A stretch of 64,000 nucleotides of DNA, taken from positions 32,001-96,000 of the forward strand of contig CBDANQ010000059.1 of assembly GCA_965197725.1 (NCBI GenBank). The letters run 5' to 3'. The position numbers were made by a program, and so were the translations under genes. Under the pieces are notes generated by a model. It ran no database searches. It saw nothing but the letters and a program-made list of their open reading frames with translations, and was not told where the DNA came from. Below, one piece after another: positions 51,501 to 61,803 of the stretch (position 1 is the first letter of the stretch; every line of letters starts with the position of its first letter). This DNA is from Longimicrobiales bacterium (GTDB taxonomy: Bacteria; Gemmatimonadota; Gemmatimonadetes; Longimicrobiales; Gaopeijiaceae).

Positions 51501-52813
51501 TTCACGAAGGAGAGCATCGAGGAGATCAACTTCAGAAAGGTCGATCTCGCGACGTTCAAGCTTCAGAACAAGGATGCCAGCGAGAGGATCCGGCGGCTCG
51601 TGGGTGAGGCCCAGGGCCGCATCCAGCGGGTCAAGGAGAAGACCGAGGAGCAGATCGACAAGGTCTTCCAGCCGGATGAGCTTCCGCCGGGCGTCGTTCA
51701 GCTCGTGAAAGTCCATGTCGGAGAGAAGAGGAAGATCTCCGTCGGCGACAAGATGGCCGGACGCCACGGGAACAAGGGCATCATCGCCAGGATCGTGCCC
51801 GAAGAGGAGATGCCGTTCCTCCCGGATGGGACCCCGGTCGAGATCGTTCTCAACCCGCTGGGCGTGCCGTCACGCATGAACGTCGGGCAGATTCTGGAGA
51901 CTCACCTCGGATGGGCCGGCAGGGTACTCGGCTTCGAGTCCAAGACTCCGGTATTCCAGGGAGCCACCGAGAACGAAGTCGGCGCGCTTCTCAAGCTTGC
52001 CGGAATGAAATGGGTCACGAATGCTCTGCACGTCGAGGCCCAACCGCCGGTCACCGAGGACGGGATCGAACAGCTAGTGGCCGTTGCCAACTTGCTTCCC
52101 GTCGTCATGGCTGGCGGCGATGAGGGCAACGGCAACGGCACGCACCGGGTGGGGCACACCCATGGTATCGGCCAGTCCCTCGACGCTTACCTGTCGCTCG
52201 AGCTGAGCAAGAAACAGCAGAAGTTCATCGACGACCTCGTAGGGTTCCTGGTCACCGCCGCCGAGGAGATCTCGGCGCGGGCGGACGACAAGATGGCGAA
52301 GCTCTTCCCGGCGATTCAGAAGCTCAAGGGCCGCTCGAACATCAAGTCTGGTCTCGACGACGCGGTCGTCGAGCTCATGGAGTACGCGGAGATCTTGCCC
52401 AACGGAAAGATTCGGCTCCGAGATGGCCGGAGCGGTCGCCCCTTCGACTTTCCGGTCACCGTTGGCTCGGTGTACATGCTCAAGCTCAGCCACCTCGTGG
52501 ATGACAAGATCCACGCGCGCTCGATCGGACCGTATTCGTTGGTTACACAGCAGCCGCTCGCCGGGAAGGCACAATTCGGCGGGCAGCGCTTCGGTGAGAT
52601 GGAGGTGTGGGCGCTCGAGGCGTACGGTGCGGCGCACACGCTACAGGAGATCCTGACCGTCAAGTCGGACGACGTGCAGGGTCGCTCGAAGGTCTACGAG
52701 GCCCTCGTGAAGGGAGACAACATGCCGAAGCCGGGAATTCCGGAGTCGTTCAACGTACTCGTGAAAGAACTTCAGGCCCTCGGCCTGAGCGTAACGCTCG
52801 GGGAGGAAGCGTA

Positions 52814-52814
<1 letters not shown>
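48561..52814 (+). CDS. rpoB: RNA polymerase beta subunit
   Basis: [25 protein letters not shown] and [17 protein letters not shown] motifs. Confidence 0.99.
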
Positions 52815-57100
<4,286 letters not shown>

Positions 57101-57128
57101 ACGGGTCCCGGGCGGGCCGCTGGTCTCC

Positions 57129-58043
57129 GTGATCATGCCCTGCCGAAACGGAATGCCCTTCGTGGGTCACGCCGTTGAGCGCGTCCTGGCTCAGAAAGCG
57201 CCCCTGGAACTTCTGTTCGTGAATGTGGGCTCCACCGACGGCAGCCTGCAGGAGGTCTCTTCGATCGACGACGATCGAATCCGAGTGATCGAGGCACCGG
57301 CCGGCACGGCTCCCGGGCGTGCGCGCAACCTCGCGGCCCGGCAGGCCCATGGTGACGTACTGGCCTTCGCGGACGCCGACGATCTCTGGCGGCCGGACAA
57401 GCTCGAGCGCCAACTGCGCCTCAGGTCGGAATCCGGCGCGGCGCTCGTATACAGCGACTGCCGGGTGATCGACGGTGCCGGCCGGTTGCTCGGGGCCTAC
57501 CTCAGCCGTCATCGTCCGACGGAGGGGACCGTCACGGACCGGCTCCTCGAGGAGAACTTCGTCCCGCTCTCGACGGTTCTCGTGGACCGCACGGCGTTCG
57601 AGGGTGTGGGCGGGTTCCATGAGGGCTTCCGTGTAGCGTGCGACTACCTGTTCGCGATTCGTCTCTCGCTTCGCGCCGCCTTCGCCCTCGATCCAGAGAC
57701 TCTGGTGGACTACAGAATCCACGACCGAAATCTGACAGCGGACTTCCGGCGCACTTATGCCGAGAATGTCCGTGTCTTCGACCTGTTGCTGGCGGACGAC
57801 GTGGCGAGCTTCGGGGCCGCGTGCCTCCGGAGGGGTCGCAGCCTCGTCCTCTGGCGCTGGGCCATCCGGGAGGGGATGGCTGGGCCGGCGGCATGGACTG
57901 AGGCCGGGCAGCGAGCCGGCGAGGCGCTCCGGTCGGTCGGCCCCGCGACGGGCGTCGCCACGCTTGCCTCTGCGGTCCGCGGCGGCCTGCGCGGCCTTCC
58001 GCTCCGCATCCGGATGGCTCGCGCCCGAGGAAACACCAGGTGA
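57129..58043 (+). CDS. GT2 family glycosyltransferase
   Basis: PLVSVIMP, GSTDGS, ARNLA, AFADADDLWRPDKLERQL and YRIH motifs. Start uncertain: homology begins before the first GTG/ATG. Confidence 0.88.
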   Translation: MIMPCRNGMPFVGHAVERVLAQKAPLELLFVNVGSTDGSLQEVSSIDDDRIRVIEAPAGTAPGRARNLAARQAHGDVLAFADADDLWRPDKLERQLRLRSESGAALVYSDCRVIDGAGRLLGAYLSRHRPTEGTVTDRLLEENFVPLSTVLVDRTAFEGVGGFHEGFRVACDYLFAIRLSLRAAFALDPETLVDYRIHDRNLTADFRRTYAENVRVFDLLLADDVASFGAACLRRGRSLVLWRWAIREGMAGPAAWTEAGQRAGEALRSVGPATGVATLASAVRGGLRGLPLRIRMARARGNTR

Positions 58044-58876
58044 AGAAGGTTCGCTTCAGCGTCGATGGCGCCGTTGTGGAGGTCGAGATCGACGATCCGG
58101 CGGAGGCTGAACGCGTCGCCGCGCTCTTCCCGACGTACGTCGTGGAGCTGGAGGACTCCGAACCGCAGGCTTTGATTTCGGTGCAGACCGATGCGGATGG
58201 CGGCACGGTTCGCTCCGGCGACCGTATTCAGCGGTATGAATGGAAGAGCGACCTGCTCTCCGGCGTCGAGTTCGAGGCGAACCAGCGTCTGCTTGCCACC
58301 CAGGCGGGGTACGTGCACTTGCACGCGTCGGGCGCGGTGGTGGACGGAAGTGCCGTTATCGCCGTCGGGCAGTCCGGTTCTGGCAAGTCCAACATGGCGA
58401 TGGCGTGGCACCGGGCGGGCTACCGTTTGCTTGGGGACGACGCCGTCCTGCTCGGGAACGACGGCAAGGTGCGAAGTTTTGCGCGGCTGATAAAACTGGA
58501 CGTGGACCGCGCCAGTGCCTTCGGGGTCGAGGTCGAGCGCACTCTGGCGTTCGACTCGACCTCTGCCGAGATCTGGTATGATCCGTCCGATGGTGCGGGT
58601 TGGGCGACAGACTTGGTCCCACTTCGGACCGTGGCGTGGGTCCGTTGGCGGCCAGGGTCGCGGCTGAGGGTACGCCGCCTGGAGCCGGCGGAGTCACTCA
58701 ATCGGATGATTAGCGAGCTCTTCAAGACCGGGCTCGGGCCCGCGGAAGCCATGCCGGCTCTCGCGCGCGTGGCTTCCGAGGCAGAACTGTTGGAGGTCGA
58801 GTTCGAGGACGCCGTGGAAGCGGCAGCCGTCTTGGCCTGTGTCGCTTCCGTCTCTAGCAGTCCGTGGAAGAAATAG
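58040..58876 (+). CDS. HPr-kinase-related P-loop kinase
   Basis: LHASGAVVDG, Walker A GQSGSGKS, LLGDDAVLL; GTGA overlap with the GT2 stop. Confidence 0.85.
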   Translation: MKKVRFSVDGAVVEVEIDDPAEAERVAALFPTYVVELEDSEPQALISVQTDADGGTVRSGDRIQRYEWKSDLLSGVEFEANQRLLATQAGYVHLHASGAVVDGSAVIAVGQSGSGKSNMAMAWHRAGYRLLGDDAVLLGNDGKVRSFARLIKLDVDRASAFGVEVERTLAFDSTSAEIWYDPSDGAGWATDLVPLRTVAWVRWRPGSRLRVRRLEPAESLNRMISELFKTGLGPAEAMPALARVASEAELLEVEFEDAVEAAAVLACVASVSSSPWKK

Positions 58877-58887
58877 GTTCCCAGCGG

Positions 58888-59964
58888 ATGATGGGTGGGA
58901 GAGAAGGCAGACACGAGCTCGGTATACGGGGCATCCTGAGTCGAATGCTCGGCTCGCGCATGCCGCCGGCCTCGGAGGGAGAGCGGGTGTACGGGCTGCT
59001 CTGGGACGAGACGCTCCTGGAGGCGCGCGCCGACGTGGGGCGGTTGCTCGGCACTCATGAGATCCCCTACCTCATGTACAAAGGTGGGGCGCTGTTGGGT
59101 GAGCAGTACCGGACCGGTGACGTACTGATGGTCGATCTGGACGTGCTGGTTCCGCTCGTTGCGTGCGAACGGGCGGCGGCGGCCTTCGAGGCCGAGGGTT
59201 GGCGAAAGAAGGACCCGGTGGGCGGCCCGGCGCTGCCAGGCGCACCCGGCGCTGTCTTCGCCCGCCCGTTCGCCGACGGGGCGTTCAGCGCTCTGGATGT
59301 GGACGTACACTGGCGAGTCGCCCCGGTCGACCGGCTATTCCCCTGGCGTGGTGAGCCAATTCCAGAGGAGGTCTGGCGATCCGCCGTGCGTGCGGGTTCC
59401 GCGCCGGTCCCGCGCACGGGGCACCACGCCGCCATGCTCGTGCACCACCTGGTGCGACACGACTTCCTCCACTTCCGCAGCGTGTTCGATCTGGTTCAGC
59501 TGTGGCCGGCGCTGCTCGCTCCCGAGGAGAGTGCTGCTTTCGCCTCCCTCGCGGCCAGCTTCGGAGTATCTCGCGCGGCCGGCTGGCTGTGTCGGGCACT
59601 CGAGGTCGACCTCCGACTCGAAGCGCTTGGCTCGCAGGCGCCACGGTCTCCTTCCGCGCGCGCTCCGAGCAGCCTCCGCTCCGTGCTATCGCTCGTAGGT
59701 CTGGCGCTCGATGCATCGAACCGCGACCTCGAGGCCATGACGTTCTCGCGGGGGCTCCGGCGCCTGAGGACGGTGGATCGTCCGCTACGTGCGTCGCGCA
59801 CGCTCTTGATGGACGCGCTGGCTCCGCCGGATGAGTATCTTCGATGGCGATGGCCCGGTACGCGGGCCCCGGTACGGCGACTCAACCACCTGGGTCGGTT
59901 GCTCGGACGGCTGATCGAAGACGACCTGACTTCCCCCCTCCCGGACGATGCCCCGGAGATTTGA
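58888..59964 (+). CDS. Nucleotidyltransferase (NTP_transf_5-like)
   Basis: YKGGALL...Y, DLDVLVP, DVDVHW and HHLVRH...DL motifs. Start at 58864 or 58888. Confidence 0.82.
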   Translation: MMGGREGRHELGIRGILSRMLGSRMPPASEGERVYGLLWDETLLEARADVGRLLGTHEIPYLMYKGGALLGEQYRTGDVLMVDLDVLVPLVACERAAAAFEAEGWRKKDPVGGPALPGAPGAVFARPFADGAFSALDVDVHWRVAPVDRLFPWRGEPIPEEVWRSAVRAGSAPVPRTGHHAAMLVHHLVRHDFLHFRSVFDLVQLWPALLAPEESAAFASLAASFGVSRAAGWLCRALEVDLRLEALGSQAPRSPSARAPSSLRSVLSLVGLALDASNRDLEAMTFSRGLRRLRTVDRPLRASRTLLMDALAPPDEYLRWRWPGTRAPVRRLNHLGRLLGRLIEDDLTSPLPDDAPEI

Positions 59965-60230
59965 TGAGCGCGACGCCCAAGGCCAGAGAGGACGTGGTGT
60001 TCCGACCCCTTGCGGACGAGTGGGTCCTGTTCGACCCCCGCCGTCATCTGCTGCACGTGCTCAACCTCACCGCGGCTTTGGTCTGGACCCACTGCGACGG
60101 GGAGACCTCGCTGGAGGCGCTCGTCGAGGAAGTGGAGTCCGCGTTCACGGATCCGCCACCACGCAGCGACCTCGTCCGAGACGTGGACGAGGCTCTGCAG
60201 CGCTTCCGTAACGAGGAGCTCTTTCTGTGA
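59964..60230 (+). CDS. PqqD-family / RiPP recognition element (RRE) protein
   Basis: 88 aa: VVFRPLADEWVLFD...HVLNLTAALVWTHCDG...LVRDVDEALQRF; ATG overlaps the upstream TGA. Confidence 0.9.
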   Translation: MSATPKAREDVVFRPLADEWVLFDPRRHLLHVLNLTAALVWTHCDGETSLEALVEEVESAFTDPPPRSDLVRDVDEALQRFRNEELFL

Positions 60231-60958
60231 GCCTCGGCCACTACGTGAGCATGCTCGGAGACCGTCGCCGCATCGAGGGCTTCCAGCAGGGCCTGGCTAG
60301 TGCAGTCCATCCGGGCGACAACGTGCTGGACGTGGGCACCGGGCTGGGGACCTATGCGTTCTTCGCTGCCCAGGCGGGCGCGGGGCACGTATGGGCGGTG
60401 GACCGCGATCCCGTGATCCATGCGGCTGCCATGGTGTGCAAGGCCAACGGCTTCGACGACCGCATCACGTTCTTGCGGGGCGAGATATCTGAGGTCGAGC
60501 TTCCGGAGCCGGCCGACCTGGTGGTCTTCGAGGACTTTCCGATCCGCCTGTTCGACGACCGGACATGGTGCCTCGTGCGGGACGTCCTGGGCAAGCACCT
60601 TCGGCCGGGTGGGCGCGTCTTTCCAACACGGATGCGCCTGAACCTCGGCTTGGCGGCCGGTCCCGAGCCCGAGGCATTGGTGGCGCTCGGCGAGGAGGAC
60701 GCGGTCTGGGGGCAGACGCTTCTGCCGGTATCTCCTCCGCTAAAGGTTCCCGCGCGGGGACAGGTGCGGGCCAGTGTGCGCCCGGAGCCCCTTCCCGACG
60801 GGGCTCCTGGGTGGCTCTCGTGGGCCGTCGAGTATGGAGTCGAGGCGCGCAACGGACACGAGTTCGCGGCAGAACCCTCTTCACTTGAGGACCTCTACGG
60901 CGATATCTTGGGTATGAAGGCCGCCGAGACCCTCCCCTCGAGGGAGATCGTGCCATGA
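60227..60958 (+). CDS. Class I SAM-dependent methyltransferase, PRMT-like
   Basis: HYVSMLGDRRR, VLDVGTGLG, AAQAGAGHVWAVD, ANGFDDRITFLRG, VELPEPADLVVFE and VWGQ motifs. Confidence 0.85.
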   Translation: MSLGHYVSMLGDRRRIEGFQQGLASAVHPGDNVLDVGTGLGTYAFFAAQAGAGHVWAVDRDPVIHAAAMVCKANGFDDRITFLRGEISEVELPEPADLVVFEDFPIRLFDDRTWCLVRDVLGKHLRPGGRVFPTRMRLNLGLAAGPEPEALVALGEEDAVWGQTLLPVSPPLKVPARGQVRASVRPEPLPDGAPGWLSWAVEYGVEARNGHEFAAEPSSLEDLYGDILGMKAAETLPSREIVP

Positions 60959-61224
60959 CCGATCAGAGCCGTAAAGAGTTCTTGAAGAAGCTCGCACAGG
61001 GGAGCATCTACGCCGCTCCCGTCGTGTCGACGCTGCTGGCTCCTCGCCCGGCGAGCGGAGGGGGGCCGGGCTCCCCGATGATGATGATGGGCATGGGCGG
61101 CATGGGTATGGGCATGGGCGGCATGGGCATGGGCGGCATGGGCATGGGCGGCATGGGCATGGGCATGCCCCAGCAGCGGAATCTGCCGGATGCACCCTGG
61201 TTCAAGCCTCGTCCCGGTCGCTGA
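60955..61224 (+). CDS. Putative precursor/substrate peptide with Tat-like/YxxP leader and Met/Gly-rich core
   Basis: ATGA-coupled to the methyltransferase; SRKEFLKK...IYAAPVVSTL leader; residues 42-71 are only M and G. Confidence 0.8.
   Translation: MTDQSRKEFLKKLAQGSIYAAPVVSTLLAPRPASGGGPGSPMMMMGMGGMGMGMGGMGMGGMGMGGMGMGMPQQRNLPDAPWFKPRPGR
61078..61167 (+). repeat. Coding microsatellite (atg)4 followed by ggcatg/ggcggcatg repeats
   Basis: Encodes MMMMGMGGMGMGMGGMGMGGMGMGGMGMGM (15 Met, 15 Gly). Confidence 0.95.
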
Positions 61225-61310
61225 GGGCCGCGGCCTCGGGGCCGCGAAGCTCACTACGATATAGGCCTCCGGAGGGCCGCTGTCGCTAACGGACCACTAC
61301 CCCGAACCCG

Positions 61311-61338
61311 TTGACACCCCCAGTACCCCCCTTACCTT
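61311..61338 (+). promoter_or_regulatory. Candidate sigma70 promoter of the str operon
   Basis: TTGACA-16 bp-TACCTT, about 95 bp upstream of rpsL. Confidence 0.6.
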
Positions 61339-61391
61339 TCTATGCTCTAGTCGGACCAGCGATTCGCAACGACAGCGAAGAGCCAAATACG

Positions 61392-61415
61392 ACGCGCCGA
61401 CAGGCGCGTTTTTTT
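61392..61415 (+). terminator. Terminator-like hairpin in the rpsL leader
   Basis: acgcgcc-gaca-ggcgcgt followed by T6. Confidence 0.5.
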
Positions 61416-61431
61416 CACGATCAGAGGGCAA

Positions 61432-61803
61432 ATGCCGACGATCAACCAGCTCGTGAGGAAGGGCCGCAAGGCTGTGCACAAGAAGAACAAAGCGCCGGCC
61501 CTTCAGCAGAACCCGCAGAAGCGCGGTGTCTGCACTCGCGTGTATACGACGACTCCGAAGAAGCCGAACTCGGCGCTTCGGAAAGTTGCTCGTGTGCGGC
61601 TCACGAGCGGGTACGAGGTCACCGCGTACATCGGGGGTGAGGGACACAACCTCCAGGAGCACTCGATCGTGCTCATCCGTGGCGGCCGGGTGAAGGACCT
61701 TCCGGGTGTTCGGTACCACATCATCCGTGGTACGCTGGATACGTCAGGGGTCGGCGATCGTCGCCAGGGACGCTCCAAATACGGGGCCAAACGGCCCAAA
61801 TAA
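61432..61803 (+). CDS. rpsL: 30S ribosomal protein S12
   Basis: [22 protein letters not shown] and [13 protein letters not shown] motifs. Confidence 0.99.

Follow-up and report, generated by a model that had tools for sequence, protein, structure and literature searches.

A probable Gemmatimonadota operon for a linear, LPP-like modified peptide, with a decaying copy between rpoC and rpsL

The DNA analyzed here (the window) is a stretch of 64,000 nucleotides from a Longimicrobiales bacterium (assembly GCA_965197725.1, contig CBDANQ010000059.1, positions 32,001 to 96,000), in which rpoC (52607-57100) and rpsL (starting at 61432) flank a cassette of six plus-strand open reading frames (ORFs). 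We conclude, with a probability of roughly 0.6, that the cassette represents a conserved Gemmatimonadota operon for a linear modified peptide resembling the linear polyphosphorylated peptides (LPP), a described class of ribosomally synthesized and posttranslationally modified peptides (RiPPs), and that the window holds a decaying copy of this operon. Its conserved core is an HprK-like kinase, a stand-alone RiPP recognition element (RRE), a PRMT-fold methyltransferase, and a small precursor peptide, with or without a nucleotidyltransferase (NTase). Judged from sequence, the likeliest role of the intact operon is to attach a phosphate and a methyl group to a small peptide that is exported. An earlier note on this DNA had proposed an RRE-guided, cyclase-free peptide-modification cassette with a small precursor; the relatives support that cassette type, but the note had missed both the damage to this copy and its leader resembling a twin-arginine translocation (Tat) signal.

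A four-row peptide profile, run on 401 genomes of the class with the leader accepted at E ≤ 3e-5, found it in 26, including the window's own genome (G000); eleven further genomes match only at E > 1e-3, and none of the four of these that were read carries the leader. The methyltransferase gene lies directly upstream of the peptide gene in 23 of the 25 genomes besides G000 (exceptions, G214 and the unpublished G025). A methyltransferase-led scan yielded 58 loci with a peptide in 49, a kinase in 53, an RRE in 53, and an NTase in 32; among the 49 peptide-bearing loci, 47 have the RRE, 46 the kinase, and 25 the NTase. Homologous cassettes thus do carry a conserved small peptide, contrary to a doubt raised in the earlier note. 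The six-gene set that the note took as the unit does not hold, as the NTase is present in about half of the peptide-bearing loci and the window's family 2 glycosyltransferase (GT2) clade in none of the 58 loci. Taxonomically, 47 of the 49 loci are from Gemmatimonadota and 2 are labeled "uncultured bacterium"; relatives of the cassette genes come almost entirely from Gemmatimonadota records, and 256 representatives fall at E ≤ 0.001 in the protein library. A looser motif search recovered kindred RR...YxxP peptides at one locus each of Nitrospiraceae and Nitrospinota. Of the 58 loci, four sit after rpoC without this GT2, as does G336, and G112 sits before rpsL, so the site is old.

The precursors share one anatomy (51 peptides; in a wider set, 140 parsed among 150 representatives): after R-R-x-F-L comes Y-x-x-P-(V/L)-(V/I), and (A/G)-Q stands some 17 residues past the Tyr. 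The first Arg is present in 51/51, the second in 50/51 (the exception being the window's RK), the Tyr in 50/51, and the Pro in 51/51, with Gln at +1 of the predicted cleavage site in 40/51. A Ser lies within 7 residues after this site in 47 of the 51 peptides, followed by a His-, Lys-, or Met/Gly-rich stretch and then a Pro-rich tail. The 89-residue Met/Gly peptide reported earlier is real for this copy (residues 42-72 comprise 15 Met, 15 Gly, and 1 Pro) but is not a family trait, being one core type beside His-, Lys-, and Met-rich cores. A Met/Gly repeat unique to G000 was ruled out, as 39 of 140 relatives have at least 5 Met. One locus, L096, carries two tandem precursors, one Met/Gly-rich and the other with a Cys pair.

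Profile matches bear out the domains named in the earlier note (GT2, HprK-like kinase, NTP_transf_5, PqqD/RRE, class I methyltransferase), with the kinase below cut-off. The RRE matches PF05402 (PqqD; E, 3.3e-12), is the sole PqqD match in the genome, and has LppB (9x8z; E, 4e-7) as its best PDB match. As described in the main text of the LPP paper, Asn33 and Asp70 of LppB hold the leader Pro and Tyr (PMC13381572). Family RRE residues Asn34 (46/46) and Asp73 (42/46) align with these two, and their conservation suggests that the RRE would bind the YxxP motif of the leader as the first step. The kinase matches PF07475 (E, 3.4e-5) and TIGR04352 (E, 1.3e-11), both below cut-off, and retains its His (HASG), Walker A (GQSGSGKS), and Asp-Asp motifs. 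By analogy with LppK, which is described as phosphorylating Ser3 of its core (PMC13381572, main text), it would then phosphorylate the Ser just past the leader.

The intact methyltransferase of the congener G002 (338 amino acids [aa]) matches the PRMT6 profile (E, 5e-49, over ~280 to 300 positions), and its structural model (pLDDT, 84.6; Foldseek TM, ~0.7 to the PRMT fold) contains the Rossmann domain, arm, and beta-barrel of type I PRMTs (PRMT6, CARM1, PRMT1). Of the PRMT double-E loop, the enzyme likewise retains the first Glu (FED invariant in 17/17 rows; the count in a 42-row set is circular because the pattern was used in that search). Unlike type I PRMTs, the family enzyme is bacterial and coupled to an RRE, has Glu at the second double-E position (+9) in only 5 of 42 methyltransferases, and has no His before the conserved Trp of the THW loop in any of the 39 rows listed out of 42, one of these 39 being mis-anchored. 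The link of methyltransferase to kinase is also tighter than that of NTase to kinase, including in lasso-like clusters; this linkage, together with the loss of the second Glu and the THW His, favors methylation of a phosphate, and next of the leader arginines. The kinase-methyltransferase WbdD, which caps O-antigen, provides a precedent for phosphate methylation. Because Arg is missing from 14, Lys from 7, His from 14, and Met from 17 of the 51 cores, no core residue would suit as the methyl acceptor throughout the family, and a core arginine is probably not the acceptor. The phosphate placed by the kinase would be our first, speculative guess for this third step. Protein P0069 is a 446-aa chain joining methyltransferase and precursor, either a natural fusion or a frameshift.

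The NTase (PF14907, NTP_transf_5; E, 2e-15) and the GT2 (PF00535; E, 2.8e-24) appear to be accessory. The closest homologues of the GT2 are in 13 genomes outside the genus, among 201 searched, and an HprK-like kinase and/or NTP_transf_5 gene adjoins the homologue in 5 of 9 inspected loci, two of which encode an RRE fused to an (R/K) leader and a Cys-rich core. Given such neighbors elsewhere and its lack of matches in the methyltransferase-found loci (including the 49 other peptide-bearing cassettes), the GT2 is a plausible recruited partner rather than a core gene. Nine downstream GT2 matches of the methyltransferase scan were rejected, as they lie >3 kb away and, where annotated (L059, L060), belong to another operon. 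Passages of PMC6993621 on pseudomycoidin report that PsmN is needed for addition of hexose to the phosphate and suggest that it may supply a glycosyltransferase, in keeping with the GT2 as a partner. By that analogy the NTase, where present, and here with the recruited GT2, may cap the phosphate with a sugar or nucleotide. The family shares with paeninodin and pseudomycoidin clusters (PsmK/PsmN) the pairing of an HprK-like kinase with an NTP_transf_5-type enzyme; it differs in having no cyclase or B2 peptidase and in its candidate Ser, which lies near the N terminus of the core and not the C terminus.

By sequence, the closest described class is LPP, the lppA-K-B-S-D-N system of Paenibacillus alginolyticus described in 2026 (Popov et al., PMC13381572, main text). 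The earlier note had placed the combination outside any described RiPP class, and LPP already provides a linear, cyclase-free class with kinase, RRE, and NTase. [quoted passage not shown] In contrast to LPP, the family has no SpI-like (SipW-type) peptidase in the cluster and no conserved MsbA-like exporter, adds the PRMT-fold methyltransferase, and opens its leader with a twin-arginine-like motif. The LPP leader YxxPxVLxHQxIxFETxxS has YxxP-x-(V/I) in common with the family, which lacks HQxIxFETxxS. The NTP transferase belongs to the LPP core, whereas it occurs in 25 of 49 family loci and is N-terminally truncated in the window, and LPP comes from Bacillota while the family hosts are Gram-negative Gemmatimonadota. 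The family thus appears to function like LPP yet to fall outside it by peptidase, exporter, and full leader, as it also falls outside the lasso peptides. The main text of PMC13381572 contains no whole-word match for Tat, twin-arginine, methyltransferase, Gemmatimonad, or Gram-negative, and the covered passages of PMC11832590 do not describe the cassette. We found no description of an RRE, HprK, PRMT-fold enzyme, and Tat-like precursor together in the literature searched (main texts, mostly of open papers); Supplementary Data 1-2 of the LPP paper and RRE-mining tables could list such clusters.

The window's copy carries lesions at four places. The stretch 58854-58915 is matched 41 more times in the genome, every match ending at 58915. 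Most of the other copies run on into a CTAG-flanked element of ~1.5 kb, and the best match of its transposase is IS1182 (NF033551; E, 6e-55, below cut-off). The kinase stop and the NTase "start" both fall inside this 62-bp insertion sequence (IS) relic. Alignment with G002 and seven other orthologues shows that the first 31 native NTase residues are gone and that 17 IS-derived residues stand in their place; in the native part (58916-59964), the KG and DxD motifs are retained and the Pfam-matched core is unchanged. All six same-strand ORFs described earlier are present in an ORF check, and four stop/start overlaps (GTGA at 58040, TGATG at 59964, GTGA at 60227, and ATGA at 60955) read as reported. 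The fifth junction, given as within about 12 bp, is instead a 13-bp overlap (58864-58876) produced by the relic. At the same spot G002 has a 290-bp miniature inverted-repeat transposable element (MITE) with inverted ends, multicopy in the congeners G001, G002, and G003; once this element is removed, the kinase stop overlaps the NTase start as GTGA, and the ancestral junction was therefore coupled like the others.

The second lesion is in the methyltransferase (243 aa), which relative to G002 has lost 270 bp (90 residues) in frame near 60688, corresponding to residues 155-244 of the G002 protein. The missing part includes the arm and comprises two helices, five barrel strands, and the invariant N176, W229, and L232, and on this ground the window's enzyme is probably inactive. 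Third, the leader reads RK, as it also does in G002. Fourth, the N terminus of the GT2 family has no ATG here (base 57096 is ATT); the rpoC terminator and the true GT2 ATG are present in G003 and missing in G000 and G002. Start options are ATT at 57096 behind GAGGAG, GTG at 57129, and ATG at 57135. The likeliest rescue of the GT2 (57085-57135) would be initiation at this ATT, which overlaps the rpoC stop. Together, these lesions point to a decaying copy of a conserved operon that has probably lost its methylation step, has a truncated NTase, and probably exports less well with the RK leader, while the kinase, RRE, and GT2 may still be working.

Logan contigs from two runs of one sample (probably the source) cover 58886-61137 gap-free and span the methyltransferase deletion and the IS/NTase joint, so both exist in reads, with only 30 letters of the Logan piece to the left of the IS joint. 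An assembly artifact was ruled out as the cause of the methyltransferase deletion, since one contig crosses it in both runs. No RNA run is listed among the sequencing runs that contain the cassette, which says nothing about its expression. None of the Logan pieces listed (58886-61137; 61135-61575) bridges the Met/Gly repeat, whose copy number is unconfirmed. A frameshift in the G002 peptide was not counted as decay; it sits in a C-run where entries P0060 and P0062 differ and may be a sequencing error.

Erosion extends to related genomes: G003 retains nothing but the GT2, joined to the final codons of the peptide gene, in G001 rpoC is directly followed by rpsL, and relatives in runs X3 and X4 share a 1,655-bp deletion joint across NTase, RRE, and methyltransferase. 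Ratios of nonsynonymous to synonymous substitution rates (dN/dS) against G002 are 0.25 for GT2, 0.36 for the kinase, 0.28 for the NTase, 0.31 for the RRE, 0.13 for the methyltransferase, and 0.15 over 31 codons of the leader, compared with 0.02 to 0.09 for rpoC, rpsL, rpsG, and fusA. Purifying selection thus acted on the genes during most of the period after the split, and the decay has to be recent. A different reading of this copy, which we regard as possible though rather unlikely, is that it is streamlined and not dying, with GT2, kinase, truncated NTase, and RRE making a phospho-glycosylated Met/Gly peptide and methylation dropped. The frames are all open and coupled, every dN/dS is <0.4, the kinase and RRE motifs are intact, and the GT2 clade elsewhere pairs with kinase and NTase without a methyltransferase; GT2 codons polarized with G003 (3 replacement and 7 silent changes in G000, 12 and 11 in G002, 17 ambiguous) give no replacement excess on the G000 branch. 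Four lesions in one cassette are harder to square with streamlining, as are the roughly 40 near-identical IS copies in the genome, the losses in G003 and the X3 and X4 relatives, and the fact that the dropped methyltransferase is the precursor's most constant partner.

Several observations weigh against a decaying copy of an LPP-like operon. Purifying selection on all five enzyme genes sits awkwardly with decay. The candidate Ser is not invariant, being absent near the site in 4 of 51 precursors and present in 108 of 140 in the wider set; LppB Phe74 is replaced by Ala or Thr in family RREs, and 3 of the 49 peptide-bearing loci show no kinase. The genomes are related and the two locus sets overlap, so that the counts do not represent independent events. 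In Nitrospiraceae, one locus whose leader is related but distant (L132) has an Asn-synthase-like match ~2.5 kb past the methyltransferase. Evidence for a Tat signal is also mixed: Tat profile matches are weak (TIGR02811 in 24 and TIGR01409 in 6 of 46 precursors), the window's own peptide matches no Tat model, and the sister-cassette proteins P0158 and P0159 have an RRE fused ahead of a similar (R/K) leader, where an internal motif cannot be an ordinary N-terminal signal.

These last points bear on how the peptide leaves the cell. Tat signals have the consensus S/T-R-R-x-F-L-K, a hydrophobic (h) region, and a signal peptidase site. If the leader also serves as a Tat signal, as these motif rules suggest, a housekeeping signal peptidase would cut at (A/G)-Q and leave a Met-, His-, or Lys-rich peptide in the periplasm, possibly, as a speculative guess, a binder of soft metals. 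A TatC gene is present in 5/5 genomes tested. For the window peptide, the best ESM Atlas score is 0.87, and the nearest named clusters are Tat-signal proteins (0.79 to 0.80), which we treat as leads only; a cluster look-up of 10 proteins gave no informative names. The same chemistry could instead go with an RRxFL helix that docks the enzymes, or is itself the methyl acceptor, with a product that stays in the cytoplasm or exits otherwise. We consider this unlikely. It would account for the weak Tat scores, for the internal TRK/TRR motifs in fusions of RRE, leader, and Cys-rich core, for the leader arginines being the only invariant Arg, and for the finding that G000 and G002 tolerate RK in an otherwise conserved leader. 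It leaves unexplained S/T/D-R-R-x-F-L-K in 47 of 51 peptides (RRxF[LVI]), a moderately hydrophobic h-region (mean best 13-residue KD, 1.41), and a leader that ends in a small residue and then Gln in cassettes with no conserved peptidase or exporter.

The fusions occur in a sister cassette without methyltransferase (L158:7242-10685 in G486 and L156:148-2721 in G519), ordered GT2, kinase, and an RRE fused to the (R/K) leader with an AQA-AS site and a Cys-rich core; an NTase follows in L158, and L156 stops at a contig edge. ESM Atlas clusters of such fusions are mostly from Acidobacteriota (score, 0.96).

Dedicated maturation functions of other RiPP classes are scarce around the operon. A Pfam scan of 146 proteins encoded at 15 loci, including the stand-alone precursor locus of G025, turned up no dedicated peptidase, cyclase, or radical SAM enzyme, and an ABC_membrane transporter lies beside the peptide in 1 of these 15 (L055, near kdtA), so an MsbA-like exporter is not conserved. 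Motif scans of the 58 loci found no S26 (SpI-like peptidase) motif, which the window cassette lacks as well, and a radical-SAM-like motif only in L129, where no peptide was found; no cyclase-like match occurs in the 49 peptide-bearing loci, and L132 has the only one among the 58. As the earlier note had it, there is no lasso cyclase or leader peptidase: G000 (88.9% complete) has no B2 match and only a partial Asn_synthase match, none of it full length, and B2 is likewise unmatched in G002 and G336. A standard lasso peptide with its cyclase and B2 peptidase elsewhere in the genome is thereby largely refuted and, in our view, very improbable, as is also indicated by the lack of Asp/Glu at positions 7 to 9 in most cores. 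Some relatives do point that way: elsewhere in G265 and G277, matches to PqqD, B2, and Asn synthase lie side by side, and lasso-like clusters in family f2 genomes (L019, L022, L023) combine an Asn-synthase-like gene and a kinase with a related PRMT-fold enzyme (pocket motif SDLRG). Those in L019 and L023 add a PqqD-like gene and a short precursor, the two cores seen lacking Arg. In a quick methyltransferase tree of 47 rows, however, the lasso-linked enzymes form a separate long branch.

It is also conceivable, though improbable, that the enzymes modify something else, such as a surface glycan or protein as has been guessed for HPr-rel systems, and that the small ORF encodes an ordinary Tat-exported mini-protein. 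The HPr-rel-A system (TIGR04352/TIGR04353) likewise pairs an HprK-related kinase with a PqqD-family chaperone, and we know of no characterized product for it. The best NCBIfam matches here are HprK_rel_A and PqqD_rel_X, the GT2, which is similar to polysaccharide glycosyltransferases, is retained on its own in G003, and stand-alone precursors without enzymes exist (contig C23 of G112; G025). The possibility raised earlier that the set is simply a described HprK-related system nevertheless fails on score, as both matches fall far below cut-off (44.2 of 200 bits for TIGR04352, 21.8 of 35 for TIGR04353). Against another target, conservation of the YxxP motif goes together with that of the RRE contact residues, the peptide follows the methyltransferase directly (within 250 bp in 47 of 49 loci), and the surroundings of the Pfam-scanned loci are housekeeping genes, with no polysaccharide loci.

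Beyond an LPP-like operon, we tentatively entertain, as a bolder and rather less likely view, that the family is a separate RiPP class. Its leader would be both RRE dock and Tat signal processed by the housekeeping signal peptidase, and its PRMT-fold enzyme, with a rebuilt pocket, would catalyze a new reaction (e.g., a methyl phosphoester of phosphoserine, or twin-arginine methylation that gates export), giving a phospho-methylated Met/His-rich periplasmic metal binder. Under either view, the family allows direct tests of a bacterial PRMT-fold enzyme whose acceptor is unassigned and of a RiPP leader that may also act as a Tat signal. The family keeps to fixed housekeeping sites, in a phylum with little-studied natural products, and it carries the kinase-RRE-NTase module past lasso peptides and Bacillota LPPs, with GT2 as a recurring partner. 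Because the window's copy is damaged, coexpressing its own genes would be the wrong experiment, and intact orthologues are suited to it; the window also warns that tidily coupled genes can mask an IS relic and a barrel deletion. Coordinates are collected in Table 1.

Table 1. Features of the cassette in the window, with coordinates in window positions.
Feature	Position	Strand	Basis
GT2 glycosyltransferase, genus-specific addition, start uncertain	57096..58043	+	PF00535
HprK-related kinase, last few codons and stop IS-derived	58040..58876	+	TIGR04352, PF07475
62-bp relic: CTAG target and end of IS1182-like element, then deletion into NTase	58854..58915	.	genome repeats
NTP_transf_5 nucleotidyltransferase, N terminus IS-derived	58864..59964	+	PF14907, orthologue alignment
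Stand-alone RRE (PqqD family), intact	59964..60230	+	PF05402
PRMT-fold SAM methyltransferase, in-frame 90-residue deletion near 60688, probably inactive	60227..60958	+	G002 comparison
Precursor leader, residues 1-35	60955..61059	+	SRKEFLK, YAAPVV, predicted cut after A33-S34-G35
Precursor core: candidate phospho-acceptor Ser40, Met/Gly repeat 61078-61170, Pro-rich tail with APW	61060..61224	+	

The IS1182-like element itself (e.g., L162:43-1545) has about 40 near-identical copies in G000 with CTAG targets. Three copies (in the window, C56, and C29) break at or near base 62 of the element, some with a 4-bp duplication there, and this point is a possible deletion hot spot. The 290-bp MITE of G002 (L016:12133-12422) has inverted ends that resemble the IS end, with dozens of matches in G001 to G003 and remnants in G000. 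One locus of G214 (L070:7028-10098) has a family precursor with no methyltransferase nearby; an HTTM-domain gene lies near it and a PqqD gene on the other strand. A promoter and terminator scan of the window was uninformative (0 promoters; 4 terminator-like sites versus 2.7 expected). Upstream of rpsL (61311-61431), TTGACA at 61311 and a hairpin with a T-run at 61391-61417 are kept in G001 to G003, and by their sequence they are possibly a promoter and a leader attenuator.

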